Below are positions 39,216 through 54,248 of a stretch of 64,000 nucleotides of DNA, piece after piece. Position 1 is the first letter of the stretch; each line of letters starts with the position of its first letter. The notes below the pieces were generated by a model. That model did no database searches and was not told the origin of the DNA. It saw only the letters and a list, made by a program, of their open reading frames with translations. Source of the DNA: a virus; the IMG/VR virus record IMGVR_UViG_3300046115_000180. One strand, written 5' to 3'. The translations under genes were made by a program, and so were the position numbers.

Positions 39216-39671
39216 TTATGCCGCGTCCACGCAAAGAATCACGTTGAGGAGCGTCGTGACCGGCGCATCCCGCAAGCCGTCTTGAAAACTGCCAGGGCAC
39301 CCGCACGTAAATCCGCACATGTTTCGGAACACTCGCGCCAGTTCATCCGACGCTTTTTGGTCGAACTTTGAGCCCAAGTTACTGTTCTCCAGATAATCGT
39401 GGACCCACTGAACCGTGGCCCGCTGCTCCGGCGTCAGCGCACCACTGTCGTCGGACACACACAAAACTACTTCCAGCAACGTGCAGCCTGTGCAATCCGC
39501 CAAGTCTTCTTGAAAGGTGCCGGGACACCCGCAGGTAAATCCACACGCATTTCTAAACACTCGCGCGAGTTCATCAGAAACCTTTTGGTCGATGTGCATG
39601 CCGCCGGCGCCGCCGCGCGTCATGTAATCTATTACCCATTGAATTGTTGCACGTTGGTCGACGGTCAGCAT
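39216..39671 (-). CDS. hypothetical protein made of two tandem ~75-aa Cys-rich domains
   Basis: Internal duplication: QRAT(I/V)QWV..DY...SDELARVFRN.CGFTCGCPG(T/S)FQ occurs twice. Confidence 0.6.
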   Translation of the reverse strand: MLTVDQRATIQWVIDYMTRGGAGGMHIDQKVSDELARVFRNACGFTCGCPGTFQEDLADCTGCTLLEVVLCVSDDSGALTPEQRATVQWVHDYLENSNLGSKFDQKASDELARVFRNMCGFTCGCPGSFQDGLRDAPVTTLLNVILCVDAA

Positions 39672-39700
39672 AAAAATATCTGGTTTAGAGTTGACTGAAT

Positions 39701-39892
39701 CTATGAAAACAGTGCTCCGCTCGGACCGCCCTCAACACCCGCGGTCGAAGCGACTTTCACGGCATCTTGCAGCAACTTACTAAAAAATAATCCGTTGGCG
39801 GCGCTACGAAGGCCATCCGCACGAACGGCAGTGTCGATGAGATTAAGCAGCGCGTTTGCCTGCTCCATGTCCATGGTAATATCAATTTTCAT
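39701..39892 (-). CDS. hypothetical protein (63 aa)
   Basis: The ATG (MKIDITMD) lies 8 nt after GCACTGTT. The ORF-track start is TTG. Confidence 0.45.
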   Translation of the reverse strand: MKIDITMDMEQANALLNLIDTAVRADGLRSAANGLFFSKLLQDAVKVASTAGVEGGPSGALFS

Positions 39893-39928
39893 TTCACCCA
39901 AACAGTGCCGAGTTTACCAAAATTTTTC

Positions 39929-42205
39929 TCATTCCGACTTGCAATACGCACCACACGCGTTGTTGTTATCCAGTCGGGGAGTGCCCTCGATATCAAAAGG
40001 TAAAACCAAACCCACCGCAAACCCGATTAATGGAGAGCCGTTCTGAAGGTGATAATCCCCATCGCCCGCGCCAGCATTATTTTCATCGGCACTCTGACGA
40101 TTCACAAATTGAGGATACCCCATCGTTTCGCTGCTGCTTGTGGGAGGCTGGTGACAATCAATACCCGCGAATTCCGCATAAAAATTTCCAGGCAATGAAA
40201 TCATGTTCTGTGCAATCTGATTGCCGCGCGACCCCACGTTATTCACTACAGGCCATGCGCCCACACGGGCACCGTTCTCCGGAGGATACGTATCCACTTT
40301 GTTTGCCAAACGGTCCCAATAATTGTTTTTCATTGACCAATCACGTCGGTTCTTAGACGTAGAATCTGTCTCATTGTAAGCGACAAACATTCTGCTGCCG
40401 AGAAATAGATTATGCCAAATGATAAAGTTATCATGAGGATTGTTCGCGCCAGAAATATCCGGAGGTATCGCGAACGTTCCGAGGCTAACGCAATGTTCAA
40501 AAATATTTTGCACCACTGCGCCACCGTGCGTATTTCCAGTAAACGGGCCTATCTGTAACAATTGCGGCTGCCCAGGGCCACTAAAGCCGTAAATGATATT
40601 AAACGCGATGATGAATCCAGTGGTTGCCGGAGCGGATTGCCCGCTGAGGTCTGTAAACAATAAAGGCGCAAACACCGCGGCCACCTTGCCGGTTTTCTTA
40701 TTTCCAATAACCGTGTAGCACTGTATAGCATTAGTGAATCCGGTTAAGTCGTTTCCACGCACAAGCGCGGGTGCGTGATTGTTCGAAGCATTAAACGGCC
40801 GAATACCCATACCAAGCTGAGTCAGCTTGCTATGTGTCACGTAAAAAACGGCGCCGCCGGTCGTCTGCCAAAGATTGGTTGCCGCCGTATTAAACTCTAC
40901 CTTGTGAAACCACAAACCTAAAATCCCCGAAAAAGAATTCGGGGTTGTCGTGGTGATAGTGACATTCTCTATCTTAATACAATTGGATATATTGACATTT
41001 CCGCTAGCCGAATTAACCACCACGTCCGAACGCGCTACGCCGACTGCGGGTCGAACGGTTATCCACGTTTCCGGAGTGCCGCCATATGAATTACTTGACC
41101 CCAGCCATGCGTAATTACCCGCTTCCAATTCAATTACCCCGCCGCCGACATCATTCCGACCATGATTCGCAAGATTGTATGCCGCGATTGCCGAAGCGGC
41201 TTTTCCGATAGTCAAAAATTTATTTGCTGTAGCCGGGTTATAAACGGCAGAATCGTAGGCGGTGCCCGTGGTATCGTTGCCCGTCGGCCCAACTTTCGCA
41301 ATCGTGATACCGTAGTCACCCGACTTATCACAAAAATTTTTCTGCGTAGTATAGAGAGGAGTGAGCCCTGCATTAACCCCATCTCGGGTATCCAGCACCT
41401 CATCTCCCACCCAGGGATACACCACAAAATCGTCTTCGATTACGTCCAAACTATCCATATCCGTCAGCGAAAGGTCGGAGACATATTCTATAACTGGAAT
41501 TTGGTCTTCGAACCCCGGCTCTATCGTTGCCACAGTAACAAACTGGGTCGCTACATGCCCGTGTTCATCCCTCCGCGTAAACTTCACTACCCGAACGGAA
41601 CGGCCTTGCTGCCCGTGACCCTCAAACGCACAACAACGGACCTTACTATCTCCCACAGTCAGCCGACGAAGCCCAGGCCATCCCCAATTCGCCACCGGTT
41701 TTTTATACGGGGCACTTGAACCATTTGTCACGGCACCGGAAAATGATTTGCTTGCGGTTCCTCCTTGCGTATAAAGCCCGTCAAAAACCGCCACTACCGG
41801 GTCCGTTCCCGAATTTCCTGCGCCCACTTTATCTTTCGCATAGATATAGTTGCTCAAAATCACTCGAATAACCACATCCGGCCCACTAATAGTTTCGTCC
41901 GCTTGGGCCTGATTAGGATACGGCTTTCGTAAAAACTTCACTCCATAAACCGTTCGAGTAACCGTAATTGGATTTCCGACGTCATCGAAGCCTTTTGACA
42001 CTACTGTAAAAATTACTTTGGGGTCGGCCCCACCCCCACTCACATGGTTATCTGTGCCCAGTCCAAATGCATAGCTACCCCCTGTGCCGACTCCTTTCAA
42101 CGTGATGGAAGCCGTCCATCCGTCTGGGTCGATAGTTACTCCTAACACCGACCCGGCCGGCGCCGCGCTGGCGAGCCCCACACTTCCCAATCGTAACACG
42201 TTCAT
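39929..42205 (-). CDS. large tail fibre / tailspike-like protein (beta-helix-like)
   Basis: 758 aa, rich in short N/G/T/V beta-strand repeats (NVTITTTTPNSFSGILGLWFHKVEFN), within the fibre cluster. Confidence 0.45.
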   Translation of the reverse strand: MNVLRLGSVGLASAAPAGSVLGVTIDPDGWTASITLKGVGTGGSYAFGLGTDNHVSGGGADPKVIFTVVSKGFDDVGNPITVTRTVYGVKFLRKPYPNQAQADETISGPDVVIRVILSNYIYAKDKVGAGNSGTDPVVAVFDGLYTQGGTASKSFSGAVTNGSSAPYKKPVANWGWPGLRRLTVGDSKVRCCAFEGHGQQGRSVRVVKFTRRDEHGHVATQFVTVATIEPGFEDQIPVIEYVSDLSLTDMDSLDVIEDDFVVYPWVGDEVLDTRDGVNAGLTPLYTTQKNFCDKSGDYGITIAKVGPTGNDTTGTAYDSAVYNPATANKFLTIGKAASAIAAYNLANHGRNDVGGGVIELEAGNYAWLGSSNSYGGTPETWITVRPAVGVARSDVVVNSASGNVNISNCIKIENVTITTTTPNSFSGILGLWFHKVEFNTAATNLWQTTGGAVFYVTHSKLTQLGMGIRPFNASNNHAPALVRGNDLTGFTNAIQCYTVIGNKKTGKVAAVFAPLLFTDLSGQSAPATTGFIIAFNIIYGFSGPGQPQLLQIGPFTGNTHGGAVVQNIFEHCVSLGTFAIPPDISGANNPHDNFIIWHNLFLGSRMFVAYNETDSTSKNRRDWSMKNNYWDRLANKVDTYPPENGARVGAWPVVNNVGSRGNQIAQNMISLPGNFYAEFAGIDCHQPPTSSSETMGYPQFVNRQSADENNAGAGDGDYHLQNGSPLIGFAVGLVLPFDIEGTPRLDNNNACGAYCKSE

Positions 42206-42732
42206 TACGCCTGAACCACGTAGCTAGCGACGACCGTCGCGTCAGTCGAACCAAACGCCCGCAAACTGAGTATCGCGGTTTTATTCGCCGCGATGCTCGC
42301 CGGCGCCGTGGCCCCGACAAAAACCCACCCGACGGGAAATGAAAGATTGCGAGAGCTTCCATCGGAAACAATCCGAACCGCAATTTCTCTATCCGCCGCT
42401 AAATTTGAACTGGTGAACGCAATGTTCCCCGTAAGAGAAATAGATTTCCAACCCGAAGTTGAAAAATCCAATGCAACGGACGCCGCATACGGAATAACCG
42501 TTCCCGTCGTTTGATACCGGCTCGCCACAATCAGAGCAGTAGACGAAAGGGGGCCGGTCATGTCGCCACCGTCCTTGCGCAAAAACGGACTCAAATCTGG
42601 TTCGTCTCCACTACCGCCGGCACCGAGGAGCGCCAAAAAATCATTGGTGATTCTTGGGTCCGGTGGGCCTTGCGTATCGCTGTTAACCAAATCGTATAAC
42701 GCGCGCCGAACATCATTCTTCGACAAAGCCAT
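42205..42732 (-). CDS. tail fibre-associated protein sharing C-terminal domain with the collagen-like fibre
   Basis: The C-terminus (SLTGNIAFTSSN...RIVSDGSSRNLSFPVGWVFVGATAPASIAANKTAILSL) is paralogous to 21689..22288. Confidence 0.55.
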   Translation of the reverse strand: MALSKNDVRRALYDLVNSDTQGPPDPRITNDFLALLGAGGSGDEPDLSPFLRKDGGDMTGPLSSTALIVASRYQTTGTVIPYAASVALDFSTSGWKSISLTGNIAFTSSNLAADREIAVRIVSDGSSRNLSFPVGWVFVGATAPASIAANKTAILSLRAFGSTDATVVASYVVQA

Positions 42733-42744
42733 AAATTTGCTTTC

Positions 42745-44232
42745 TTACCACGCCGGAATATATCGAGTGGTTCCATTATCGTTGATGGGAATCCACTTTG
42801 TCGGATTGCCGACCGCGGGAGCATTCGCCAAAGTGCCGGCCGACGCACCGGCACCGTCCGCTAAAGCGGCCGATGTATTGTGCATAAACGCAGTTTGGCT
42901 AGTCGTAACGCTGAGCGCCGTCAGCGCCGCGTTTGCGCTACCGTCCGCCAACACAATAGAAATCCCCGCGCCATTACGCGCAATTGCGCCAAACGAACTC
43001 GTTGTCCCGCCAAAGTTCAGCCGAGTAAAATTATTTTGCGCCGCATTGAAAAGCTCAATTATCCCGTCGGCAGAACTCTTAATACTCCCTCGTGCCGCCC
43101 ACGATAGTGTTCCGGTAGCCCCGAGCGTAACGCTGGTGGATTGAAACGTGCCGTTGGTAGCAATCAGATTAGAACTAAGCAGTGTCAACACTGTAGCAAA
43201 CGCGCCCCCGTTAATCGACACATCAAAAACTAAATTCGACGTAGGAGTAGTCGCTCCCTGAACCGGCTGATTGTATACTCGCCAATCTACCGGCTGGCTG
43301 GCCGCAGTTGCAACAGTCTTCCAACCCTGGCCGGTGAATCGCAATGCCGGCGAATATTGTTGCGCCCCTACGGCCGCGGCAGTTGTGTTAGTCAATTGCA
43401 AAGAATCTGCCGGAGTAGCACCAATAGCCGTTTTCAACGACGTGATGAGGTCCGTCGTTTTGTTATACAAAAATCCTGCGTCTCCGCCAAAAACACCGGC
43501 GTCATTGAACTGAATTTGGGTATCTGCGCCGCCGGGCGTGCCACCGGCCCCCAACGAAACCGTGGCCCCATTAATTCGCGCACGAAGTAAATTACCAGTG
43601 CTATCATACCAGAGGTCTCCGTTGGAAGGAGCACTAGGGTCACCCGAGAGCGAACCCACGTTAAGCCCCGCGTTGGTGCCATTCGGATTAAACGTCTGCC
43701 GAACCCCGTCAGGAAAACCAATTAGCCCCGTAGTCGAAATCGTGAAAACACCGGAGGCCCCAAACGCAACCGAACCGTTCGTGTTAAGCGCCGTGTTGAG
43801 ATTAACATTCACCGCCCCCGTATTCGAAATGGTAATCTGACCGCCCGCGAACTGCGCAGAGCCGTCCGGACTTAACAAAATTGTTCCCGTCAAAATATCA
43901 ACACCGCTGGCAAACAGTTCGTTAATTTCTAACTGACCAGAATCATGGTATAGAAAAATCGCGGGACCAAACGTAGAAATTCCTCCCACCACCGTGGCGT
44001 CCAAATGCACTGCGCTACCGATGTCGAGGTCGCCGGTCATGGTATCACCGGCCTTCAACACCCGCGCGGCTACTTCGAACGAAAGCGCATGTGGAAACCC
44101 TCCCGGAGTTGAACCGTTGTGCAGCCGCAGCCGGTTCTGCTGGGTATCGAACGATAACTCGCCCAGGGCGCCGGTAAAGCCATCATTAGCCGCGGTGGTC
44201 CCTTTTCTTATTTGAACTTGTTTGTCAGCCAT
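42745..44232 (-). CDS. tail fibre protein
   Basis: The N-terminus VQIRKGTTAANDGFTGALGELSFDTQQNRLRLHNGSTPGG resembles the conserved fibre/Mtd-type N-terminal motif. The rest is a long beta-rich region. Confidence 0.6.
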   Translation of the reverse strand: MADKQVQIRKGTTAANDGFTGALGELSFDTQQNRLRLHNGSTPGGFPHALSFEVAARVLKAGDTMTGDLDIGSAVHLDATVVGGISTFGPAIFLYHDSGQLEINELFASGVDILTGTILLSPDGSAQFAGGQITISNTGAVNVNLNTALNTNGSVAFGASGVFTISTTGLIGFPDGVRQTFNPNGTNAGLNVGSLSGDPSAPSNGDLWYDSTGNLLRARINGATVSLGAGGTPGGADTQIQFNDAGVFGGDAGFLYNKTTDLITSLKTAIGATPADSLQLTNTTAAAVGAQQYSPALRFTGQGWKTVATAASQPVDWRVYNQPVQGATTPTSNLVFDVSINGGAFATVLTLLSSNLIATNGTFQSTSVTLGATGTLSWAARGSIKSSADGIIELFNAAQNNFTRLNFGGTTSSFGAIARNGAGISIVLADGSANAALTALSVTTSQTAFMHNTSAALADGAGASAGTLANAPAVGNPTKWIPINDNGTTRYIPAW

Positions 44233-44242
44233 AATTCACCGT

Positions 44243-44713
44243 TTAAACATTGCCCCAATCGTCGAACTCAACTGCTGGTCCGGTTAATCCACCCCAATTC
44301 TCGAAACACACAACAGGGCCGGAAAGCCCGCCCCAGTTATCCATGCCAGCACAATCTTCTGGAACCGCGCTAATAGCCTGAACAATTCGAAAAAGTAAAT
44401 TGTAGATTGAATCGCCGGGACGAAAACTCCCTGGGGAAAGAATATCGAGAATCCGCTTAATGGTATTCCACTGCCAGTCGCCGCAGTGGCAAGCGTCATC
44501 GCCGAGTGCCCGGAGGACTTTTTGCCAGAGTTCGGGTAGCGTATCGCCCGGCCGCGGAGTCCCGCCGTAATGCTCTACCAATTCCCAGACCAGATTGTAT
44601 TCCCGCTCGTCCGGGCAGCCGAACTCAGCACCCACTGATTGTAACCACTTTCGAAGTAGCACGACCACGCTGTCCCCAGGACGAGCCTCAGTCGAAGAAT
44701 AGCTGCACGGCAT
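44243..44713 (-). CDS. hypothetical protein with C-terminal NWGGL(S/T)GP repeats
   Basis: DNWGGLSGPVVCFENWGGLTGPAVEFDDWGNV. The ATG lies 7 nt after GCACTGTT. Confidence 0.5.
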   Translation of the reverse strand: MPCSYSSTEARPGDSVVVLLRKWLQSVGAEFGCPDEREYNLVWELVEHYGGTPRPGDTLPELWQKVLRALGDDACHCGDWQWNTIKRILDILSPGSFRPGDSIYNLLFRIVQAISAVPEDCAGMDNWGGLSGPVVCFENWGGLTGPAVEFDDWGNV

Positions 44714-44755
44714 ACATTAGAACAGTGCCGCGCAGGGGTCAAAATGATTACGGTA

Positions 44756-45580
44756 TTACTGCACTTCCGGCAACTCAACCGGTGGCGGCTCGGCGACTGA
44801 AACCAAAGCGGAGTCTGGCGGACAAGAAGATCCATAAACCGCCCAGTCGAGGCCCGCGGATTTCGCCCAGGACCAAATAACCCTCGTCGGCACGAAAACT
44901 GAAATTCCGGGACCGGCTCTGCCGACCATGATGCCGACGACTTCGCCGGAAGTGTTGAAAACACCGCCGCCAGAACCGCCGGGAACAACCGTCGCGTCGG
45001 TTTGATCCACGAGTGGCCATGGCCAGCCGGGTAACTGGGACGGAAATACGCCGACTTGCGAAATCACCCCGGTAGTGATGGAGTTATCGAAATTGTCGCC
45101 CAGGAAATTGCCGATGTGAAAAACGTGCTCCCCGGGTTGCGCGACGGTGCGGGAGAAAGTTACACCAGATGCAAGGTCCGTCGGAGAAATTATCCAATAC
45201 AGCGCTAGATCCGGCCCTTCATTCTTGGCAATGAGGACTGCGGGAAATTCGGCGAACCCGGCTTTCTGAGTGCCGAACCGAAAAATCCTGCGCACGACGG
45301 CATCCGAGCCGCCGGCTACGTGCGCCGCGGTCCAGAGAAAAACCCGGCCCTCGCCCGCGGGATTGCGCCGATGAATGAGGACACCGGTGCCGGTGCCGGT
45401 TGGTGTGACGACGAGGAGAGTAGAATTCGCCGCGCGAATGGCCGACGATTGCTCAGTCGGCCCCACTAAAAAAGCAATGCCGAGCGCTAGAAAAACCGCA
45501 AGAGCAGCGACGAGAATTTTCTGCGCCCGGGATGGGGATTTTAATACCGGGTTGTCGACTTGCGTTTTCGTTTCTTGCAT
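44756..45580 (-). CDS. membrane-anchored trypsin-like (S1/S1C) serine protease
   Basis: N-terminal hydrophobic anchor. His (WTAAHVAGG), Asp (PDLALY) and Ser (PGGSGGGVF) occur in the order of the catalytic triad. Confidence 0.75.
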   Translation of the reverse strand: MQETKTQVDNPVLKSPSRAQKILVAALAVFLALGIAFLVGPTEQSSAIRAANSTLLVVTPTGTGTGVLIHRRNPAGEGRVFLWTAAHVAGGSDAVVRRIFRFGTQKAGFAEFPAVLIAKNEGPDLALYWIISPTDLASGVTFSRTVAQPGEHVFHIGNFLGDNFDNSITTGVISQVGVFPSQLPGWPWPLVDQTDATVVPGGSGGGVFNTSGEVVGIMVGRAGPGISVFVPTRVIWSWAKSAGLDWAVYGSSCPPDSALVSVAEPPPVELPEVQ

Positions 45581-45609
45581 TTGCTACACTTTCTGCATGC
45601 CATAGGTTA

Positions 45610-45858
45610 TCACCTCCCTGCCGCCGCCGCTTCGAGTTCCTCGCGTGCCTGTCCTAAAAGATAGAACGCGTTTCGAACGCGAGCGTCTAAGTGGGTAGAC
45701 CCCGCCTCCATCCGTTCGAGAAACCGCATCAGCAGTCCCACATTCTGGGCACGCCGGGCGGCGAGTTGCTCGAAGGACTCCGCGGCCGGCGAAATGAAAT
45801 GCTCGGCCGAGTGCTCTATGAGCCGTTCGATGGGGCAAGGTGAGGTGTTTACGTTCAT
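45610..45858 (-). CDS. hypothetical protein (82 aa)
   Basis: ATGA-coupled ORF. Confidence 0.45.
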   Translation of the reverse strand: MNVNTSPCPIERLIEHSAEHFISPAAESFEQLAARRAQNVGLLMRFLERMEAGSTHLDARVRNAFYLLGQAREELEAAAAGR

Positions 45859-46184
45859 GTGGGATTCGATTCATTCGTTCGCTGAAAAAGTTCAACTGCC
45901 GTCCACGGATCGCGCGGGCCGACGAGCACCGACTTAATGGTTGGGCCGAGGAGAATCCGGCCGGGGTTGATGAGGGACGGGACGATCTGCCGGGTCGACA
46001 GTGTCGGTTGCAGAGTTTCGAAAGATTCCGGTGGGGCGTTGTCCGGGTCCGGGTGCGCCGTCGCGCGGGCCGAGAAAATACCGCACGGAGGAGCCGGGTC
46101 CGTCCAGAAAAATACGACGGTGCCGTCAGAGAGTGTCTTGGTGTTCAGTTCCGGGGCCGGGCACGGGACATTTACTTCGTTCAT
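45855..46184 (-). CDS. hypothetical protein (109 aa)
   Basis: The internal ATG (MNEVNVP) lies 7 nt after GCACTGTT and 2 nt after the upstream TAA. Confidence 0.5.
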   Translation of the reverse strand: MNEVNVPCPAPELNTKTLSDGTVVFFWTDPAPPCGIFSARATAHPDPDNAPPESFETLQPTLSTRQIVPSLINPGRILLGPTIKSVLVGPRDPWTAVELFQRTNESNPT

Positions 46185-46186
46185 AC

Positions 46187-46450
46187 TTACAAACAGTGCT
46201 CCGATTCCGTCCATGGGTCGCCCCACCAACGACGAATTCGAAAAAATTGGTATTCAGAACTGGCTGGAAGCACGACCCGATAGTCGGAACCTTCAATCGA
46301 GTATGGCCCGGGGACTTCATACCATACATCGGAACCCGGTGACTGTGCTTCCAGCACATCTCGAACGGGCATCAACGCCCCCGACTCGTCTGGGACTCGA
46401 CATTCGAAGGTCCAGAGCACGGTAACGGCGGACAGCAGTGCGGCAATCAT
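46187..46450 (-). CDS. small membrane protein (87 aa)
   Basis: MIAALLSAVTVLW is an N-terminal hydrophobic helix. The start is ATGA-coupled. Confidence 0.5.
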   Translation of the reverse strand: MIAALLSAVTVLWTFECRVPDESGALMPVRDVLEAQSPGSDVWYEVPGPYSIEGSDYRVVLPASSEYQFFRIRRWWGDPWTESEHCL

Positions 46451-46749
46451 TGAGTTAGAAAAATCATGGTTCGAACAAACGCCCACGCCATCCATGTAAA
46501 CCCGAGCGCTAGAATTCCGCCGGCAAGAAGCCCCCAGAGGGGGCCGTCTTTTGACAAATGAAAAATCCCGGCTCGCCGAACGACGGCGGCGCGAAATGGC
46601 GACCGGGCTGTCCGCAGTTCGGGCACGGGGGTTCCGGGGGTTTCAGTGCAAAGGCCCGTCGGTTTGACTTCTTTCGCTTTGAAATTTTCATACGCCCGAA
46701 TCATTAATGTTTCTCGAACCATGCTGTTGTAGTATTGCCAGTGCGTCAT
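46447..46749 (-). CDS. membrane protein (100 aa)
   Basis: C-terminal hydrophobic segment LWGLLAGGILALGFTWMAWAFV. Confidence 0.5.
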   Translation of the reverse strand: MTHWQYYNSMVRETLMIRAYENFKAKEVKPTGLCTETPGTPVPELRTARSPFRAAVVRRAGIFHLSKDGPLWGLLAGGILALGFTWMAWAFVRTMIFLTQ

Positions 46750-47045
46750 GGAATGAATTGCTCAACGAAAAGTTTTGTATCCACGAGCCCGATGTGCAAT
46801 CCCTGCGATTCCGCTTCCGCGCGGACGGCTTTGATGGCGGCGATTATGCGACTGCCGTTGAACGGGGCCGACGAGTTTTGAATCGCCCGGATGAGGGGCA
46901 TCAGTTCGACGGTTTTCTTGTTGGGGTCCGCCGTCTCGGCGGACTCGATTTCGACCGATTTGATGTCGACGTTCGGGTGAGCCGCCTTTTGAAAGTGCTC
47001 CCGGATGATCTCCGAGGCTTCGAAGTTTGAAATTATGATTTTCAT
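46746..47045 (-). CDS. ribosomal protein bL12 (L7/L12) C-terminal-domain-like protein
   Basis: RIIAAIKAVRAEAESQGLHIGLVDTKLFVE resembles K(V/I)[22 protein letters not shown]. The ATG (MKIIIS) follows a promoter/operator. Confidence 0.45.
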   Translation of the reverse strand: MKIIISNFEASEIIREHFQKAAHPNVDIKSVEIESAETADPNKKTVELMPLIRAIQNSSAPFNGSRIIAAIKAVRAEAESQGLHIGLVDTKLFVEQFIP

Positions 47046-47084
47046 TGTCAGAAAAAATGTATCCGATTTTCTGACAGAAGTCAA
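47046..47084 (-). promoter_or_regulatory. sigma70-type promoter overlapped by a 10-bp inverted repeat (operator-like)
   Basis: TTGACT (47084-47079), a 17-nt spacer, TACATT (47061-47056). The IR TGTCAGAAAA (47046-47055) / TTTTCTGACA (47067-47076) abuts the ATG at 47045. Confidence 0.5.
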
Positions 47085-47252
47085 GTGCTAATTCATCCAA
47101 AACTGCGAGGATGCCCCATGGAGATATCCCGTTCGGTCGCGAAGAAAAATTGCAACGAGCAATAGCCGGATTCCCGGTGGGGCGTGAATCGTTACCTGGA
47201 CCGCCGGATCGCCGAGTGTCTCGTAGACGAGTTTCAGTTTGTCAATTGGCAT

Positions 47253-47399
47253 AAAATTGTGAGGACCAGATACTGGTGATCAGCCAGCACATGTCAACGT
47301 GGTCCTCAACACGGCGAGGCTGGAATTCGAATCGCCACCTGAACCCTTTCGGAGTCCATGCTACTGCTTCCGACCTGTCGGCCGGTAAGCTCAGCCTGC
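47253..47399 (-). ncRNA. candidate ~145-nt small RNA between promoter copy P3 and a terminator-like hairpin
   Basis: Begins about 6-8 nt after the -10 at 47405-47410. It ends at the hairpin GAGGACCA...TGGTCCTC (47261-47307) followed by ACAATTTTAT. Only very short ORFs lie inside. Confidence 0.3.
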
Positions 47400-47404
47400 A
47401 CTAA

Positions 47405-47433
47405 TATTATCGGCACCCCGACGAAAAAGTCAA
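47405..47433 (-). promoter_or_regulatory. sigma70-type promoter P3 (near-copy of P1 at 49204)
   Basis: TTGACTTTTTCGTCGGGGTGCCGATAATA. It matches the P1 promoter at 26 of the first 30 aligned positions. Confidence 0.55.
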
Positions 47434-47884
47434 ATTATATTTTCCGCCAATGCGAGAGTCGTCGTTACGCTGGGCGACGCCGGGTTGTTCGGAATTTTGC
47501 CGGATCTCCATTTTTGGACCGCCGGATCGAACCTCCGGCGCCGCACGCGGTCCGCGGGAACGAGTTCGAAAAGCTTGGCACCGAGCGGCAGCGCCAGGAC
47601 GCACCATTCACGCATAAACGGTGCCAAGATCGCTCGATCCCAATTTTTTATTTCTCGATTTCACGTGTAAGCGAAGTTTCCCCCAGGAAAAACCCCCCAG
47701 CCGGGTCGGCAAAATCTGCCCAGACAGCATTCGGCATGCCAATCTGCAGGTCGGCGGATCGTGGTGGGGCGGATCGCCGGTTCGCCCCGATTCGAGATTT
47801 CCGTAGAAATGTTACGCACATGCCTGTCCTTATTTGCCCACCTCTGCTCGTCCCTGTATAAAAAGTTACAGTAAGTGCAAAAAG

Positions 47885-48529
47885 CTACATATGGCTTGGG
47901 TGAAAGGACCCAATTCCGCTTACCCTACGCTTTGCCCATACGACACGCATACACTCGGCAATATGTGCCCGAAGCGCAGGCGTTTTTGCCGCAGACATTT
48001 TTCGCCTCGTCTGCTCCGACTTCGGACGGTTGAGGAGCGCCGCACTCAATTTAACACGCGTTTCCGGCAACGTAGGTCGGCCCGTGCTCCGTTGTATCAA
48101 CAGGGCTTTGCAATGGGGCGGCATTGGCCTTCCCTTGCGTCCGCGGCGCGAGTCTGACATCTTTCGACGTGTTTCCAAAGAAAGCTGCTTGCCGCGCCAA
48201 TAGCCCATCTTATCGCGCATTTCCGCCGTAAAAACTGAGACCCCGTCACCGCCGTCCGTTCCATTCACCAAACCATTGCCCAGACTTCGAAAATATTCGA
48301 TATATGCCGCTTCCAAGGACAACGCCTCGGCGTCCGCTACCTCGTCGATAATTTCCAACCCAGGCACTTTCCCATCACGGGTCAACGCGCGTATCCAGTT
48401 CGTCTTGTGCCCACGTTCTTTGCACAACAGGTGTGCTCTGAAACGCCGTTTCGGCCGACGGGATTTCCCAACGTATCGAATCAGCCCGGTATCCGGATCA
48501 ACCAGCCCGTAAATATACGCGATACTCAT
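47885..48529 (-). CDS. GIY-YIG homing endonuclease with NUMOD3-like repeats
   Basis: IYGLVDPDTGLIRYVGKS...RFRAH is a GIY-YIG motif. Repeated ETRRKMS / ETRVKLS / QTRRKMS segments follow. Confidence 0.85.
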   Translation of the reverse strand: MSIAYIYGLVDPDTGLIRYVGKSRRPKRRFRAHLLCKERGHKTNWIRALTRDGKVPGLEIIDEVADAEALSLEAAYIEYFRSLGNGLVNGTDGGDGVSVFTAEMRDKMGYWRGKQLSLETRRKMSDSRRGRKGRPMPPHCKALLIQRSTGRPTLPETRVKLSAALLNRPKSEQTRRKMSAAKTPALRAHIAECMRVVWAKRRVSGIGSFHPSHM

Positions 48530-49188
48530 TCCTTATCGTAGGGAGTGGCGACCTTCGCTTCTGCGCGCACGGTAGTAACCGCCAATGCTTGCGCCGTGCT
48601 TACTTGAGCATCGAACAACGCCGCGCGCGGAGATCGCGATAGCTTCACTTCGGCCATGGCTTTTGCAATACGCGCGTGTAGCTCGCCGCCAGCAGTGCTA
48701 TCATCTTCTGCCGTCTTACGCTTTACCCGCTCCGGCGCGGTATCGTTAAGTGCTTGATACGTAAGGGCTTGTGCTTTTTCCATCGCACTCGCAAGATCGG
48801 CCAGGGCTCGGGTGGACAGCTTACGAAACGCTCCGTCCTTGTTCTCGCTCATGAGTAAGTAAGACTCAAACTCCTCAGCACCCATACCCGTAATTCGTAA
48901 CAAAACCCGCTCCAAGAAGAGACGAAAACGGTGGGCCATTACGAAGTTGAGGGCTCGGTTGATTGCGCGCTCAATATCGCCAGGGCGCCCTGACTTCTTC
49001 AACTCGATAATCGACTTAAGCCGCTCATTCCAGCCTTCCTCGTCTACCATCCGCAGGACTTCCACCGGCCGGACGTTGAGGGCGTGGGCGGTTTTCTCCA
49101 GGTCGCCGCAGAAGGTTGCATACAGCAGGAACGCCTGCTCACGGTCAAAAACAACCTCTTGGGCGTCTTCGGGGTTCGGTATTGGCAT
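48526..49188 (-). CDS. hypothetical protein (220 aa), first gene of minus-strand block
   Basis: The ATG (MPIPNPED) lies 7 nt after GCACTGTT. The ORF-track start lies inside the divergent promoter. Confidence 0.55.
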   Translation of the reverse strand: MPIPNPEDAQEVVFDREQAFLLYATFCGDLEKTAHALNVRPVEVLRMVDEEGWNERLKSIIELKKSGRPGDIERAINRALNFVMAHRFRLFLERVLLRITGMGAEEFESYLLMSENKDGAFRKLSTRALADLASAMEKAQALTYQALNDTAPERVKRKTAEDDSTAGGELHARIAKAMAEVKLSRSPRAALFDAQVSTAQALAVTTVRAEAKVATPYDKE

Positions 49189-49203
49189 ATACAAAAACAG
49201 TGC

Positions 49204-49232
49204 TTGACTTTTTCTCGTGGGTGCCGATAATA
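49204..49232 (+). promoter_or_regulatory. sigma70-type early promoter P1
   Basis: TTGACT, a 17-nt spacer, ATAATA, then a ~23-nt leader containing GTTTAAAC before the ATG at 49256. Confidence 0.6.
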
Positions 49233-49255
49233 TAAGCGTAACGTTTAAACAACAT

Positions 49256-49495
49256 ATGACCCTCAAACTAAAATATCACAGCGTCACCGCCAACGGGGTA
49301 ATCACGCGCTCCATTGTTGAAGACCGCTTCTTCCAAACCTTTCGCCGGTTTGGTGGTCGCGTGCTCGTTGCGTGGCAAGAGCGCATCCACACGGGTGAAT
49401 ACCACAACGTTTTAGACCGCGCGCGCATCGACGCACTCGAAACCGCATTTAACACGCTGCCCACCGCAACACCGTCACAACTCCAAAACTGGTAA
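49256..49495 (+). CDS. hypothetical early protein (79 aa)
   Basis: The ATG follows the P1 leader. The ORF-track start lies inside the promoter. Confidence 0.5.
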   Translation: MTLKLKYHSVTANGVITRSIVEDRFFQTFRRFGGRVLVAWQERIHTGEYHNVLDRARIDALETAFNTLPTATPSQLQNW

Positions 49496-49500
49496 AAATT

Positions 49501-49677
49501 ATGCTCGTCAACAAAATCATCTCTTACGAATCCGGCGAAATGGACGAAGCCGAAACCATCGAATTCTTTCAAGAACTTATCAACACCGGGCTCGCGTGGC
49601 AACTCCAGGGCCATTACGGTCGCACTGCCGCTGCGCTCATTGAAGCCGGCGAATGTTCTCCTAAAGTTTCTGCTTGA
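49501..49677 (+). CDS. small acidic hypothetical protein (58 aa)
   Basis: Not in the ORF track. MLVNKIISYESGEMDEAETIEFFQELINTGLAWQLQGHYGR... Confidence 0.45.
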   Translation: MLVNKIISYESGEMDEAETIEFFQELINTGLAWQLQGHYGRTAAALIEAGECSPKVSA

Positions 49678-49713
49678 CCTGCCGATAATAATATTGTAAC
49701 GTTTAAACAGCAT

Positions 49714-49917
49714 ATGAGCAAAAAGCACTTCATCGCAATCGCCGCCACAATCCGAAGTCAAATTGATTCAGAGTCCCACCTTATCGCCGGACCTCGCAAA
49801 ACGGTCCGACTGGAAACAATCGCAGAAAGCGCAAACCGTCTCGCAGACGTGTTCGCCAACGAAAACCCGCGATTCGACCGGGCTCGGTTCCTGGCCGCGT
49901 GTGGCATCAACCGATAA
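49714..49917 (+). CDS. hypothetical early protein (67 aa)
   Basis: The ATG follows a second copy of the P1 -10/leader sequence. Confidence 0.5.
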   Translation: MSKKHFIAIAATIRSQIDSESHLIAGPRKTVRLETIAESANRLADVFANENPRFDRARFLAACGINR

Positions 49918-49924
49918 CACGACC

Positions 49925-50251
49925 ATGGACTTTTTCACACACCAATCGGACGGCGGCATCGTCATGCAGGGCAGCGCGCTCTGCGAAGCCGACCAATCCC
50001 AAGTGCTGCGCGCCTACGTCCACCGATATACCGGAGACCACCGGCCGAACTGGGTGGACGATAAAACGCCGCTCCATTTCAAACACGACAACGAGTGGTT
50101 GGATAACACCTACTTCGCAGTCAACCATCACGGGCGTCTACGCGCCTCGGTTCGCGACTGCTACAGCCGTCCCACATTCCCAAACCATCCTGAGCATCGC
50201 TCAAAAAATCCAAACCCGTTCCAGTGCGGTATTCACAACGTCAACCCATGA
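49925..50251 (+). CDS. hypothetical protein (108 aa)
   Basis: Internal ATG (MDFFTHQ) lies just after the upstream stop. Confidence 0.45.
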   Translation: MDFFTHQSDGGIVMQGSALCEADQSQVLRAYVHRYTGDHRPNWVDDKTPLHFKHDNEWLDNTYFAVNHHGRLRASVRDCYSRPTFPNHPEHRSKNPNPFQCGIHNVNP

Positions 50252-50571
50252 AAAAACTCAGAATCACAATCGGCACGGGCTGCGGCCTGCGCAAAGATAG
50301 CACGCCCATCAGCGGGTTCGACCGCGCGCAGATGACGATGCTCACCAAAAGTTTTCTGTTATCGAACTGCGGCGGCTACACAATAACAACCGCGGACGGC
50401 GGCTGGCGCGATGCAGAAGGCACAGACTGGGAGGAGCCCAGCATGGGGTTCGTCGTCATCATCGACGAGGGCAAGATAATCCCCGAGGCACTGGCGCAAT
50501 TTGTGCGAGACACGTTCGAGCAGGTTTGCGTGATGCTGACCGTCGAAGAAGTAAATACCCAAATGATATGA
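50248..50571 (+). CDS. hypothetical protein (107 aa)
   Basis: ATGA-coupled start (MKKLRIT). Confidence 0.5.
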   Translation: MKKLRITIGTGCGLRKDSTPISGFDRAQMTMLTKSFLLSNCGGYTITTADGGWRDAEGTDWEEPSMGFVVIIDEGKIIPEALAQFVRDTFEQVCVMLTVEEVNTQMI

Positions 50572-50672
50572 AAAACCGAAAAGCAGTAGATGATGCGGTC
50601 GCGATAGCGATTGTCGCGAGTGTCCTGGGAATCGTCGCGGGAGTTTTTCTAATCCTACTCTCCCATATATGA
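50568..50672 (+). CDS. tiny membrane peptide (34 aa)
   Basis: Not in the ORF track. ATGA-coupled at both ends, with hydrophobic core AIAIVASVLGIVAGVFLILL. Confidence 0.35.
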   Translation: MKNRKAVDDAVAIAIVASVLGIVAGVFLILLSHI

Positions 50673-50929
50673 AAAAACTGTTTCAACAAATCGACGACCT
50701 GTGCGTCAACGCGAACATGCACGGGATTTGCACCGCGCTGCACCTGCCATGGTTCGGCAGTCCAAACGCAATCGGCATCCGCCTGGGCGGACGCGAATAC
50801 GTATTGCCCGGAGCTACTGACCGGCTTTGGCGCCGGAAGTGGCGGAAGTTCCTGACGGACCACGTTGACGACGTTGCCAATAATCTCGCCGCTGCGCCTG
50901 CCGCTGCTCGCGACGGGCAATCCGATTGA
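50669..50929 (+). CDS. hypothetical protein (86 aa)
   Basis: ATGA-coupled ORF. Confidence 0.45.
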   Translation: MKKLFQQIDDLCVNANMHGICTALHLPWFGSPNAIGIRLGGREYVLPGATDRLWRRKWRKFLTDHVDDVANNLAAAPAAARDGQSD

Positions 50930-50975
50930 GGCGTTTGACATCCGGCGGCATGCGCTCGAATAGTTTACTGCTCAT

Positions 50976-51206
50976 ATGCTAACAGTGCAATCCATCATGG
51001 AGAAAGCGAAGGCGGACTCGCTGGTCACCGGCGACAGATTCGTGCCCGGCCGACCAGGGCCGAACAGCCGCTGGTGCGTCATCGACGCGCACCTTGAAAA
51101 CGTGATTGAGTCGGGGCTGACCTTCGATGTTGCCTTGGACCACGCCGAGCGGTTTTCCCGCCTGGACAAAGTCCAACACGAGGATGCGTATCGCAACCAT
51201 CGATAA
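50976..51206 (+). CDS. hypothetical protein (76 aa)
   Basis: Last ORF in the early-gene run before the 430-nt non-coding region. Confidence 0.45.
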   Translation: MLTVQSIMEKAKADSLVTGDRFVPGRPGPNSRWCVIDAHLENVIESGLTFDVALDHAERFSRLDKVQHEDAYRNHR

Positions 51207-51634
51207 TTTTCCGGCCGGCGTAAAAACCTTGCGAATGTGAGGACAACGAGAAATCGGGGTATGCGCAAGCAATGCGGGCCACCTGCCGCAGAACTGTCCT
51301 TTTCGCCGGCCGGATTAGAAAAATACCCTGCGGAGCAGTCGGCTTAATTAATTTCGAGTTTAATCTGGATAAAATTCATCATGTTACTTACCCCTCTTTA
51401 TCAAGAGAAAAAAAATAGAATATATATAGGGGGGGAGGGGGAACCACGCCCATTAGGGAGCACTGGAGAAACCGCCTTCCAAGGACTGGACCCCGCTTTT
51501 TTTTGGTGGCCCGAGTTGTCTCTCAAAAATATACACCGTAAACTTAATAACGACGAACCGGCGAACCGACCCACCGGCGAAATAAAATCCGAAATTCTGA
51601 CAAAACCTGACTCCACCCCTGCACTGTTAGCTGT

Positions 51635-52027
51635 ATGAACGTTAGTATCGACCCGATTCGGGAACACCTTCGGACATCGAAGGCCCGGCGCAAATCGCTC
51701 AACGCCGATTGGTGGACCGAGAACAACCAAGCCAACAAACTGCGAGCGGAGATCCGGCGAATTTCCGAAGCGGTTCTCCGGCTTGAAACTTTCAAGCGGG
51801 AACTCTCCGAGCGGGAGTTTCGGATGGCAAAACTCACCGGGGATATCAAGACCGAGGACGACTTCCAGGCAGAATTGAAATCCAAGCTCTCTGAGATTGC
51901 GTCGGCCAAACGATTGCTTAAGCGGTTTGATACCCTTCAGCAGCCGGATAATCGCAGCCTGATACCGGGAATACCCAACGACAGCTTGCTTAAACCTATC
52001 CAAACCGACGAAGAGTATGGGGCGTAA
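51635..52027 (+). CDS. coiled-coil hypothetical protein (130 aa)
   Basis: The ATG lies 6 nt after the plus-strand GCACTGTT. Confidence 0.55.
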   Translation: MNVSIDPIREHLRTSKARRKSLNADWWTENNQANKLRAEIRRISEAVLRLETFKRELSEREFRMAKLTGDIKTEDDFQAELKSKLSEIASAKRLLKRFDTLQQPDNRSLIPGIPNDSLLKPIQTDEEYGA

Positions 52028-53088: not shown

Positions 53089-53177
53089 CGAAGGGTGGGC
53101 GTAACGCGCACGTAAGTGCCGGCAACGTCGGAGTGGTAGCGCCCTCTATGCCGGTTCGAATCCGGCCCCTTCGACCA
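53089..53177 (+). ncRNA. tRNA-like element (acceptor stem, T-arm, CCA) without a canonical cloverleaf
   Basis: GCCGG-TTCGAAT-CCGGC T-arm. CGAAGGG (53089-53095) pairs with CCCTTCG (53167-53173), followed by ACCA. I could not fold a D-arm or anticodon arm in the 54 nt between. Confidence 0.4.
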
Positions 53178-53432: not shown

Positions 53433-54248
53433 ATGAAAATAACCAAAGCAATCGCAAAGAAAGTCCTCTCGGTCGTGGATGCGGGATTAGTCCACGGACT
53501 GGGCAATAGCAAGCCCGGCGAAATGTGCGTCGAGGCCGCTGTGTGCTTCGCACTTGGACTTCCGCACTCTGATAACCCGCCATGCGTGGGAGCCGCCGTT
53601 CGGTCGTTCAAAATCCGGTTAAACGATTCCCCATGGTCGTCGGATGGCGCGCGCGCGAAAGGGATGCGAAAACTCGCCGTCGCGCAACTTGGTTCCGACG
53701 TTATTATTCAGAAAGAATTTTCAAAACGTCTCGCGATCAAAACCTGCCAGCGGCTGCTGCCCAAGATTCTCCGGTTGGTGGCAGAGAAACAGGAAGTGCC
53801 CTTTAAGACAGAGTTGCTAAAACACGTTGGGTCGTGTGAAAAAGTTTTGACGCTGAAAGAAGCGGAAGGGGCTGCGCAAAACGCCGCCGCTACCGTCGCC
53901 GCCGCCAACGCCGCCGCCTACTGCGCCGCCTACTGCGCCGCCAACCGCGCTGCCGTTCGCGCCAACGCCGCCGCCAACGCCGCCGCCTACTGCGCCGCCA
54001 ACGCCGCCGCCGCCGCCAACGCCGCCGCCAACGCCGCCGCCAACGCCGCCGCCTACTGCGCCGCCAACGCCGCCGCCGCCGCCAACGCCGCCGCCTACTG
54101 CGCCGCCTACTGCGCCGCCTACTGCGCCCACGCCGCCGCTACCGCCGCCCAAGATGAATTCCTTTCTTTTTCGGCGGATCTCGCGCTGGAAGTCCTCATT
54201 GAGTTAGAGTCGCCTGGAACGAAGTTTTTGGATCTTTGCAAAATATGA
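53433..54248 (+). CDS. protein with Cys-containing N-terminal domain and long NAAA/YCAA tetrapeptide repeat
   Basis: 271 aa. About 22 four-residue units (NAAA, YCAA) lie between residues ~150 and 240. Confidence 0.65.
   Translation: MKITKAIAKKVLSVVDAGLVHGLGNSKPGEMCVEAAVCFALGLPHSDNPPCVGAAVRSFKIRLNDSPWSSDGARAKGMRKLAVAQLGSDVIIQKEFSKRLAIKTCQRLLPKILRLVAEKQEVPFKTELLKHVGSCEKVLTLKEAEGAAQNAAATVAAANAAAYCAAYCAANRAAVRANAAANAAAYCAANAAAAANAAANAAANAAAYCAANAAAAANAAAYCAAYCAAYCAHAAATAAQDEFLSFSADLALEVLIELESPGTKFLDLCKI
53878..54152 (+). repeat. 12-nt tandem repeat (AACGCCGCCGCC / TACTGCGCCGCC)
   Basis: Directly visible in the sequence. In frame within 53433..54248. Confidence 0.9.

Follow-up and report, generated by a model that had tools for sequence, protein, structure and literature searches.

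What occupies the roughly 0.8 kb of apparently empty DNA at positions 47,046 to 47,884 of this viral sequence? The earlier note, made on the whole 64,000-nt stretch (here called the window), saw no convincing ORF there and read the island as a single non-coding control region that could be a lysogeny/late switch, an origin or iteron region, or a Dam-type control region. Comparison with related phages does not bear out either point. In two ORFs (ORF61 and ORF54) the differences from relatives are strongly biased towards synonymous changes; these two small genes, both under purifying selection, make up ∼42% of the island, and the remainder is a mosaic of cassette parts. We think it likely that the island is a hyperplastic accessory-gene junction, in which compact promoter-delimited cassettes stand in a row, rather than one control element. 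Once compared, the stretch appears densely functional, with two micro-genes, an RNA unit, promoters and a deletion scar (Table 1).

The window matches JGI sediment contigs of ∼72.6 kb at 100% identity, and its source is a novel sediment phage of that size. A blastn search (distant mode) of 44500-52000 against phage GenBank (50,697 records) gave no DNA match, and almost none of the phage proteins matched PHROG or Pfam; a serine recombinase gene lies at 38004-38792. Scans of IMG/VR with the 220-aa protein and three island DNA patterns, and of GTDB genomes with the hairpin, found nothing. Rfam, searched with the whole window (gathering thresholds) and with the island (E <= 5), gave no match, which makes a group I intron tied to the GIY-YIG gene unlikely. 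The comparison set consisted of near-identical phages, ∼88%-identical phages and diverged relatives in soil metatranscriptome libraries. Contigs from these libraries are unstranded and may derive in part from DNA, and sequence conservation confounds their depth. Depth was rejected as a measure of expression because its peaks fall on conserved promoter/leader segments that draw contigs from many relatives.

Table 1. Features of the island and its surroundings, in window coordinates
Feature	Position	Strand	Remarks
99-aa gene, driven by P2 (predicted)	46746-47045	-	Small real family, 17 representative clusters
Promoter P2 (predicted)	47046-47084	-	TTGACT-17-TACATT; 10-bp inverted repeat brackets -10 box
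ORF54, real 54-codon ORFan gene (MPIDKLKLVYETLGDPAVQ...)	47088-47252	-	
Candidate ∼145-nt structured RNA	47252-47399	-	5' hairpin 47389-47367, two short hairpins, compound hairpin 47311-47258, U-tract 47257-47252
Promoter P3 (predicted)	47404-47433	-	TTGACT-16-GATAAT; early-promoter family member
ORF61, real 61-codon gene (MREWCVLALPLGAKLFELVPADR...)	47430-47615	-	Distal gene of mom operon in relatives
Deletion scar	47616-47632	-	Filler CTTGGCACCG, inverted copy of 47574-47583
Block A, conserved non-coding	47633-47810	-	GATCCGCC direct repeat (GATC at 47757, 47772) and palindrome GGCATGCC
3' tail of GIY-YIG cassette	47811-47884	-	Only in endonuclease-carrying genomes
GIY-YIG and NUMOD3 homing endonuclease gene, free-standing	47885-48529	-	Pfam PF01541, PF07460; PHROG 314
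Promoter P1 (predicted), rightward early promoter, inverted partner of P3	49204-49233	+	
Third P1-type copy	49675-49717	+	-10 plus leader GTAACGTTTAAACAGCATATG; spacer collapsed in present genome

The island appears to be set between a leftward early operon (the 220-aa gene and the GIY-YIG homing endonuclease) and a leftward cluster of small genes leading into the tail genes. In our model it would hold six minus-strand cassettes. The first would be the tail of the endonuclease cassette. The second is block A, conserved and non-coding, which relatives have ahead of a promoter and a Mom-family DNA-modification gene; here the gene is deleted and a templated 17-nt scar is left. ORF61, the surviving distal gene of the mom operon, would be the third, and the fourth would be P3, an early-promoter copy predicted to drive a structured RNA of ∼145 nt that ends at a compound hairpin and U-tract. 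The small ORFan gene ORF54 would follow, and last P2, whose -10 box lies inside a 10-bp inverted repeat and from which a near-leaderless mRNA of the 99-aa gene would be read. Each cassette would begin at a -35 box and finish with a stop codon adjoining or overlapping the -35 box that follows; in P3, this box is overlapped by the stop codon of ORF61. Promoter sequence common to the cassettes (the TTGACTT box; ∼27 nt for P2) could provide short homology for recombination between related phages, by which cassettes would be inserted, deleted or swapped, each bringing its own transcription signals.

The cassette borders are marked by alternative alleles. One near-identical genome (L003) is 99.9% identical to the window down to 47427, then switches inside the promoter just past TTGACTT and carries P2, an RNA ligase gene (PF09414) and P2 again in place of 47427-47085. 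Alleles of this type also lack the 99-aa gene, P2 being joined to the 3' part of the next gene. A ∼88%-identical genome (L010) has the same ligase cassette, an extra Mom gene at 47616/47633 and no endonuclease. The junctions between the window and both genomes fall at the TTGACTT -35 box of P3/P2. One metatranscriptome relative has 47085 joined to 47448 by 31 other letters and therefore lacks both alternatives (the RNA ligase, and P3 with its RNA and ORF54). In three DNA runs (X15, X21 and X23) both alleles occur, and the backbone that carries them differs nowhere else; for X15, depth is 13.2 over the backbone and 8.2 and 6.5 over the two alleles. With alternative alleles side by side in a single sample and the backbone the same, cassette swapping seems to have been caught in action. 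The homology at the P3/P2 junction is only ∼7 nt (TTGACTT), and the pattern would look no different if recombination had been illegitimate and functional promoters had then been selected. What we infer is recombination through promoter homology. A promoter scan returned 14 sites (5.0 expected). Separately, the island was considered as a diverged inverted duplicate of 51.5-51.8 kb; this was rejected, as there are only two collinear 22-nt matches and no extended alignment, with a local score of 34 against a shuffle maximum of 31.

At the upstream end of the island, the endonuclease gene overlaps the stop codon of the 220-aa gene. It is absent from L009 and L010, where window positions 48601-47811 are replaced by ∼480 nt comprising a reverse 59-aa gene and 3.1 copies of a 22-nt tandem repeat. 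Block A is 92.7% identical between the window and these two genomes and has no frame with a synonymous excess (2-3 synonymous vs 11-12 non-synonymous in all six). An ORF57 within it (47821-47648) was rejected as coding, with 3 synonymous vs 11 non-synonymous changes against L010. Sub-blocks of block A recur in diverged relatives with the GGCGGATCGCC motif kept. In relatives the block is immediately followed by a promoter (TTGGCA-17-TAAGAT) and a 195-aa gene of the Mom family, which occupy the scar position. In L010 this amounts to a 640-bp insertion relative to the window, and the gene matches PF25680 Mom (E = 1.1e-25). Metatranscriptome relatives show the same L010-type junction at 47633.

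A cluster of GATC sites had suggested Dam-type control of the island. Between 47207 and 47775 we counted eight sites, not nine; this is the maximum in the window, with a marginal excess (Poisson p 8.5e-4 per window, ∼0.09 after scanning). Four other regions reach 7 per 569 bp, and the local Markov-1 expectation is 4.6. Three of the island sites are in coding sequence, one is in a hairpin loop and two are in the deletion scar; only the pair 47757/47772 sits in the conserved non-coding block. The direct repeat described as 14 nt is real and its exact length is 15 nt (TGGACCGCCGGATCG, at 47197-47211 and 47515-47529). If methylation did play a part, block A would be the methylation-sensitive region of a mom operon, as in phage Mu, whose mom gene is controlled by Dam and OxyR (PMC2909390), left in place after the loss of mom. 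The Mom-family gene directly downstream of the block in relatives is in keeping with this, as are the GATC pair conserved in L010, the recurrence of GGCGGATCGCC in diverged relatives with differing flanks and the local enrichment of the oriented 8-mer GATCCGSC (5 of the 14 window copies are clustered in the island, all on the minus strand). We nevertheless regard such control as improbable, given the marginal excess, the under-representation of GATC in the window as a whole (216 found vs 312 expected), the distance of the L010 sites from the mom -35 box (∼120-150 nt upstream) and a scan of the proteins that gave no methyltransferase. Any methylation control would now act on ORF61 alone because mom is absent from the present genome. 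By analogy with Mu, the GATC pair upstream of mom in relatives may be a weak echo of the Dam idea; we read block A as one part of the row of cassettes.

The coding status of the two micro-genes was established from their substitution patterns. Between ORF61, called as a 59-aa gene in L003, L011 and L012, and its L010 orthologue, the in-frame codon differences are 10 synonymous and 4 non-synonymous vs 1:12 in the other forward frames (binomial p = 3e-4). For ORF54 and a metatranscriptome variant the counts are 14 synonymous and 6 non-synonymous, the latter conservative (0:17 and 1:18 off frame), and 17/24 changes fall at third codon positions (p = 2e-4). Relatives of ORF54 at ∼83% identity have no indels over 171-199 nt. 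Homologue searches found ORF54 in the present lineage only, and found none for ORF61 outside it.

The proposal of a duplicated early promoter was confirmed. The pattern TTGACTTTTTC-N4-GGGTGCCGATAATAT occurs exactly twice in the window, vs 0 expected; P1 and P3 share 26/30 positions, and the inverted repeat that they make up has 33-nt arms set 1770 nt apart. P3 has a consensus score of 10/12 in the promoter scan. Relatives hold more copies of the P1-type promoter, with the consensus cTTGACTTTTt-N7/8-TGCCGATAATAT; their P3 retains the -35 box and TGCCGATAATAT and has a variable spacer centre. At the site of the third copy (49680) they read CACTTGACTTTTTATCCGAAA followed directly by TGCCGATAAT. 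The P1/P3-type promoters are a genuine repeated family. Their inverted arrangement might alternatively bound an invertible segment, or the island might be a replication origin or iteron region, and the 33-nt repeats flanking 1.77 kb, the phage-encoded serine recombinase and short GC-rich repeats in the island would all suit such a role. Either would surprise us greatly. All assembled contigs and four deep DNA runs have a single orientation, with no strand-changing joints, and the L003 allele, which lacks P3, has an identical arrangement. The origin suggested earlier is not supported: 46500-49500 contains no tandem repeats, cumulative GC skew is still falling through 47 kb and turns near 54 kb, and the island has a GC content of 0.527, as elsewhere.

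Downstream of P3, the compound hairpin is present as described, an 8-bp core (GAGGACCA/UGGUCCUC) and an inner CUGG/CCAG stem being followed by CAAUUUUAU. The 161-nt fold has a predicted energy of -58.7 kcal/mol (z = -2.2). The 5' hairpin begins ∼10 nt past the predicted start, and P1 has no such stem-loop. The P3 module (47433-47252) is conserved in relatives: one contig in each metatranscriptome run (4/4) matches exactly 47252-47415/47433 at ∼93% identity, with flanks unlike the window on both sides. These contigs are unstranded, and DNA carry-over is possible, structural genes being covered too. The segment 47252-47355 is almost invariant among relatives, and conservation ends at the -35 box or promoter spacer (47433/47415) on one side and at the end of the U-tract on the other. 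Across three distinct sequences, 44 predicted pairs show none broken, one compensatory change and four one-sided changes that preserve pairing, the structure having been predicted from the alignment on which pair preservation was scored. The longest internal ORFs have 17-36 codons, and a 1-nt indel is tolerated. Because the module recurs with unrelated flanks and its stem substitutions keep pairing, it is plausibly a portable gene for a small RNA of ∼145 nt. The stretch from P3 to the hairpin behaves as a self-contained conserved unit; the transcript ends are predicted. The hairpin is followed by a short U-tract (UUUU), at which the terminator scan made no call. A search within the window for antisense targets of the RNA gave only 12-13-nt matches at chance level.

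The same module might instead be a promoter with a long structured 5' leader of the following gene, here ORF54, and not an independent gene. This we hold to be possible, though somewhat doubtful. The ATG of ORF54 (47252) starts within the U-tract, 5 nt past the hairpin and directly after CACAAUUUU; no minus-strand promoter-like site lies between 47404 and 47252 to serve ORF54, which is a real gene; and the U-tract is weak as a terminator. In relatives, however, the module and ORF54 are separated: past the module the sequence reads AAATAATTACGTG... or AAATAACGCGCG..., and the 30 nt downstream contain no start codon. ORF54 in turn is preceded in relatives by different sequence, the alignment breaking at 47251, and conservation of the module halts exactly at the end of the U-tract. 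A more ambitious version of the small-RNA reading, which we consider unlikely, has the P3 unit as a portable promoter-to-terminator ncRNA gene that moves as its own cassette and could be an RNA-based counter-defence or host-takeover factor outside the described RNA families. A counter-defence role is conceivable because the slot holds an RNA ligase in sister genomes and the Mom gene adjoins it. The comparison thus nominates as candidates a conserved mobile RNA of ∼145 nt and two ORFan micro-proteins, in a slot otherwise holding known counter-defence genes (Mom, RNA ligase).

Both elements previously described next to the 99-aa gene exist as sequence: the second promoter (47084-47056, minus strand) and the palindrome, a perfect 10-nt inverted repeat (47046-47055 and 47067-47076, 11 nt between the arms) that abuts the ATG at 47045. 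As RNA the palindrome is predicted to form a hairpin of -11.1 kcal/mol. Since the inverted repeat ends at the ATG, the mRNA would be near-leaderless. P2 has one copy in the window and two more in relatives, where TTGACTTNNGTCAGAAAATCGGATACA stands on both sides of the RNA ligase gene (L003 and L010). The layout had suggested a repressor/operator switch (lysogeny or early/late), with TGTCAGAAAA-N11-TTTTCTGACA as an operator over P2. The repeat is perfect, brackets the -10 box and is kept at 9/10 in L010/L014 and at 7/10 in L003 copy 2, and the serine recombinase gene leaves a temperate lifestyle possible. A switch of this kind is nonetheless hard to credit. The site is single, the paralogous P2 copy upstream of the RNA ligase lacks the downstream arm, and a relative at 73% identity uses a different promoter with no palindrome. 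Pfam and PHROGs identified no DNA-binding protein, HTH or repressor family among the neighbouring proteins, and the stem-loops that lie over the -10 box in the PeSL elements discussed below give the same layout with no repressor (PMC2839356). We see P2 as a promoter that would travel with its cassette.

The locus exemplifies a way of genome evolution already familiar from phages rather than a switch of a new type. In T4-type phages, PeSL elements consist of a conserved sigma-70-type promoter and a stem-loop, often over the -10 box, and flank ORFans that vary from one close relative to the next (Arbiol et al., 2010, PMC2839356; PMC4122927 was also used for comparison). As in that system, strong sigma-70-like promoters are repeated in the intergenic spaces of a hyperplastic region (P1, P3 and the 49675 copy; P2 in relatives), a stem-loop overlaps or adjoins the -10 box (P2), and ORFans or auxiliary genes are inserted, deleted or replaced between very close relatives with junctions inside the element. 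In contrast, the present phage has no relation to T4, a Shine-Dalgarno sequence is missing (the predicted start precedes the ATG by 3-18 nt), two promoter classes have only the TTGACTT box in common, and one cassette appears to carry an RNA and not an ORF. With promoters and terminator predicted, the locus would thus work like promoter/stem-loop shuffling by PeSL elements; it is not a member of that family because it has no similarity to known phages and no Shine-Dalgarno sequence. The analogy would extend promoter-mediated cassette shuffling beyond T4-type phages, to an uncultivated phage from sediment that is unrelated to them and whose genes have leaderless-type starts.

Other phage systems share single traits with the island. 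Morons, the promoter-gene-terminator units of lambdoid and other tailed phages, are likewise autonomous units between conserved genes that vary in presence among relatives. In the island, however, the flanking regulatory sequences are themselves the repeated junctions, and the units are tiny (54-61 codons, or RNA only). The relatives' Mom-family gene resembles the com-mom operon of Mu in being preceded by a conserved block with paired GATC and in having a small, predicted co-transcribed ORF; unlike in Mu, mom is deleted in the present genome, the GATC sites are further upstream, and ORF61 lies downstream of mom and has no Com-like zinc-finger cysteines. Lambda OOP RNA and the C4 and CI RNAs of P1/P7 and P4 are short phage transcripts with their own promoter and a terminal hairpin in a regulatory or accessory region. 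The predicted P3 RNA is discrete in the same way, with its own promoter and terminal hairpin, but it has no antisense partner gene on the opposite strand and no Rfam match and is portable between contexts. The predicted homing endonuclease differs from the T-even GIY-YIG systems in that no intron is involved. Like the free-standing T-even enzymes (Seg type, I-TevI relatives), it combines the catalytic domain with NUMOD3 and is intergenic and present or absent among relatives, and the flanking sequence that is exchanged takes in the neighbouring gene's 3' end.

The window belongs to a novel tailed phage. JGI sediment contigs of 72.6 kb are 100% identical to it over the 6 kb tested, no DNA similarity was found to 50,697 GenBank phages, and very few of its proteins match Pfam or PHROG families. 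Genes left of ~49.2 kb lie on the minus strand (among them a tail fibre with Mtd_N and a trypsin-like protease) and those to the right on the plus strand (among them DUF7417, an SbcC-like ATPase and a helicase). The 99-aa gene beside the island is a member of a small real family. The sequence features that the earlier note listed for the island are real, but their unifying reading as a non-coding control island is unsupported. We regard the locus as a hyperplastic accessory region, resembling a PeSL/moron shuffling system in how it works (PeSL, the promoter-early stem-loop cassettes of T4-type phages); this kind of phage genome architecture is already known, and the locus is a further instance. 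It holds two micro-genes, the scar of a lost gene of the DNA-modification family Mom and, plausibly, a portable small-RNA cassette.

Features of the island and related elements (window coordinates unless a contig is named)
Feature	Position	Strand	Remark
Island	47046-47884	minus	between free-standing GIY-YIG + NUMOD3 homing endonuclease (47885-48529) and 99-aa gene (46746-47045)
Endonuclease cassette tail	47884-47811	minus	
Block A	47810-47633	minus	conserved, non-coding; upstream of mom promoter in relatives
Scar of mom deletion	47632-47616	minus	filler CTTGGCACCG
ORF61	47615-47430	minus	stop codon overlaps -35 box of P3
P3	47433-47404	minus	promoter
Structured RNA (candidate)	~47398-47253	minus	
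ORF54	47252-47088	minus	stop codon 3 nt before -35 box of P2
P2 with inverted repeat	47084-47046	minus	ATG of 99-aa gene directly after
Promoters with short-leader first genes	49204, 47084, 38951, 10874; L013 176-214		
GTTTAAAC copies	8468, 19265, 31215, 37770, 44241, 49243, 49701, 52582, 58465, 63076		

Relatives of three kinds were found by exact-protein look-ups and one metagenome scan. Contigs L003, L011 and L012 are 99.9% identical to the window from 50000 down to 47427 and diverge within P3, the inverted partner of the early promoter P1, right after TTGACTT. Past this point they carry TTGACTTCGGTCAGAAAATCGGATACAAATTAAACATG, then a 292-aa RNA ligase (PF09414) and the same promoter again, TTGACTTATGTCAGAAAATCGGATACATTTTTTCTG, which is the window's P2; the 99-aa gene is missing. 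Contigs L009, L010 and L014 (~80-93% identical) have the same P2-ligase-P2 cassette and lack the endonuclease, whose place is taken by a 59-aa gene in reverse orientation and a 22-nt repeat in 3.1 copies. These tandem copies (unit GAGCATACCAATAGCGGATATG; L010 795-862), followed by the palindrome AGTTGAC-N6-GTCAACA, are absent from the window and look iteron- or operator-like. The same contigs have a 640-bp insertion at window 47616/47633, consisting of a promoter and a 195-aa Mom-family protein (PF25680, E = 1e-25), with ORF61 immediately after. More diverged relatives abound in four soil metatranscriptome libraries. In one of their contigs 31 different letters connect 47085 with 47448, so that neither alternative is present at the slot, and in several the match stops at 47633, where the L010-type mom promoter takes over. 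In the DNA runs X15, X21 and X23 the window and ligase alleles coexist on a backbone without other differences; their depths in X15 (8.2 and 6.5) sum to roughly that of the backbone (13.2).

Each cassette extends from a -35 box to a stop codon in contact with the -35 box that follows, and all replacement junctions observed fall at a -35 box or inside the 27-nt P2 repeat. In the simplest reading, the repeated promoters would be expression signals and recombination linkers at once: a gene between two P2 copies, such as the RNA ligase, could be looped out or exchanged, and the common TTGACTT box would let P1-class and P2-class cassettes replace each other. The same logic has been demonstrated for the PeSL elements of T4-type phages, which combine strong sigma-70-like promoters with a stem-loop, mostly placed between the two boxes or across the -10 box, and which lie on either side of ORFans that vary among near-identical phages (PMC2839356). 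At the mom scar, the filler is a perfect inverted copy of 47583-47574, which suggests templated repair or fill-in at the deletion. The resulting pair of arms, a perfect 10-nt inverted repeat (47574-47583 / 47619-47628, CTTGGCACCG / CGGTGCCAAG), brackets the start codon of ORF61 and would enclose it in an mRNA hairpin loop; the upstream arm is present only in genomes with the mom deletion.

The P1/P3 pair was confirmed, a pattern of 26 specified bases matching exactly twice against none expected (identity 26/30). An invertible P1-P3 segment was rejected: a single orientation was seen in all contigs and DNA runs, and the L003 allele lacks P3. P2 (TTGACT-17-TACATT, 47084-47056) is likewise present, as is a perfect 10-bp inverted repeat (47046-47055 / 47067-47076) that abuts the ATG and had been taken for a repressor operator. 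The evidence for a repressor site is thin. The P2 copy that precedes the RNA ligase has no downstream arm, the palindrome is weakened in L010 (9/10) and in the second L003 copy (7/10), and a 73% relative, which has a different promoter, lacks it. Operon-first genes across the window start 3-18 nt past the predicted transcription start, without a Shine-Dalgarno sequence, so that an ATG right next to the palindrome is what would normally be seen in this phage; a leaderless type of expression such as this may be a clue to the host clade. On the PeSL view, the palindrome would be the stem-loop half of the element and could serve to attenuate transcriptional read-through out of the cassettes upstream. 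A third early-promoter copy (49675-49717) has a collapsed spacer, TTGACC being followed directly by TGCCGATAAT where relatives have TTGACTTTTTATCCGAAATGCCGATAAT, apparently through a 13-nt deletion that probably inactivates the promoter of a 67-aa gene.

The part of the earlier note that survives best is the P3 RNA. The compound hairpin is present (47311-47258), followed by CAAUUUUAU. The unit recurs at ~93% identity in contexts unlike on both sides, compared with 80-90% for coding regions of the same relatives, and one contig per metatranscriptome run matches exactly 47252-47415/47433 with both flanks unrelated (these libraries are unstranded contigs and may hold DNA). Only one or two changes fall in 47252-47355, the remainder clustering in the 5' hairpin. 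None of the 44 predicted pairs is broken among three distinct sequences, from which the structure was itself derived; one C-G pair becomes A-U and four are changed on one side and still pair. The unit tolerates a 1-nt indel, and its longest internal ORFs have 17-36 codons. The conserved stretch is bounded by the promoter and by the final residue of the short U-tract, borders that would be expected for a promoter-to-terminator gene. A serious rival, which we consider possible but not probable, is that the unit acts as a leader for ORF54, which in the window starts within the U-tract, 5 nt past the hairpin. The RNA had no match in Rfam, and its hairpin was not found in IMG/VR or GTDB genomes. 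It is the piece of the locus most worth an experiment.

The statement that the island has no convincing ORF was wrong: ORF61 and ORF54 (61 and 54 codons) both show an in-frame synonymous excess against relatives. ORF61 differs from its orthologue in L010 (a ~88% relative) by 10 synonymous and 4 non-synonymous codons (1:12 in other forward frames), and for ORF54 the comparison with a variant rebuilt from a metatranscriptome contig gives 14 synonymous and 6 conservative codon differences (0:17 and 1:18 off frame), with 17 of 24 changes at third positions and no indels over ~200 nt at 83% identity. The direct repeat, exact over 15 nt, sits in frame within both ORFs, where it is translated as DPAVQ, so three of the GATC sites belong to coding sequence. 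Approximately 42% of the island is coding, the remainder being promoters, the RNA unit, a regulatory remnant and scars.

The GATC cluster comprises eight sites, not nine, against 4.6 expected locally. It is the densest 569-bp segment, but seven sites are reached in four other regions (scan-corrected p ~0.09). Oriented GATCCGSC is locally enriched, the island holding five of the 14 window copies, all on the minus strand. Window-wide, GATC is under-represented (216 found, 312 expected) and absent from 38669-44829 (6.1 kb, tail-fibre genes) and 48798-51751 (3 kb, early genes), which suggests selection against it in parts of the genome. Block A is 92.7% conserved (~99% in its first 96 nt) and has no coding signal in any frame. 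Within it lie two copies, 15 nt apart, of the direct repeat GATCCGCC(C/G)ACC, together with the palindrome GGCATGCC; the motif GGCGGATCGCC is kept in diverged relatives while its surroundings change. Since mom of phage Mu is controlled by Dam and OxyR (as cited in PMC2909390), a methylation-sensitive mom control region is a fair lead for block A, and no more, because GATC distances differ from those in Mu and mom is deleted here. Two collinear 22-nt matches (91% identity, inverted) link 47488-47509 / 47763-47784 to 51748-51769 / 51554-51575, with no extended homology between island and early genes.

Two further proposals for the island were rejected. No tandem repeats or GC-skew turn were seen that would mark a replication origin or iteron region, and no repressor for a lysogeny switch was identified in the proteins of this phage scanned, although a serine recombinase elsewhere would be compatible with a temperate lifestyle. 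This protein (38004-38792, minus; Resolvase N-terminal and Recombinase domains) adjoins the tail-fibre genes, is preceded by a TTGACTT-type promoter at 38951, and is a possible integrase or tail-fibre invertase. A 151-aa ORF nearby contains a 137-nt direct repeat of 72% identity (39228-39364 and 39456-39592). The tail fibre with Mtd_N, a domain of the major tropism determinant type, has 495 aa (42745-44232, minus). Two enzymes encoded further left at 25820-27678 (minus), a GDP-mannose 4,6-dehydratase (E = 2e-137) and an NAD-dependent epimerase/reductase, make up an auxiliary 6-deoxyhexose (GDP-fucose-type) pathway carried by the phage; most minus-strand genes left of the island have no family match. 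On the plus strand, ARAGORN called a tRNA-Gly(GCC) at 53089-53177, at 89 nt unusually long for tRNA-Gly, and a 271-aa ORF (53433-54248) contains ~15 units at 53870-54181, spaced 9-18 nt (mostly 12 nt), which form an Ala-rich protein repeat of low complexity. The window has 10 copies of the palindromic octamer GTTTAAAC against 1.1 expected, a number reached in 0 of 100 shuffles. Several copies lie at gene junctions or 0-12 nt upstream of start codons (e.g. GTTTAAACAACATATG, GTTTAAACAATG), and the octamer may act in translation initiation, in processing or as a middle/late promoter signal.
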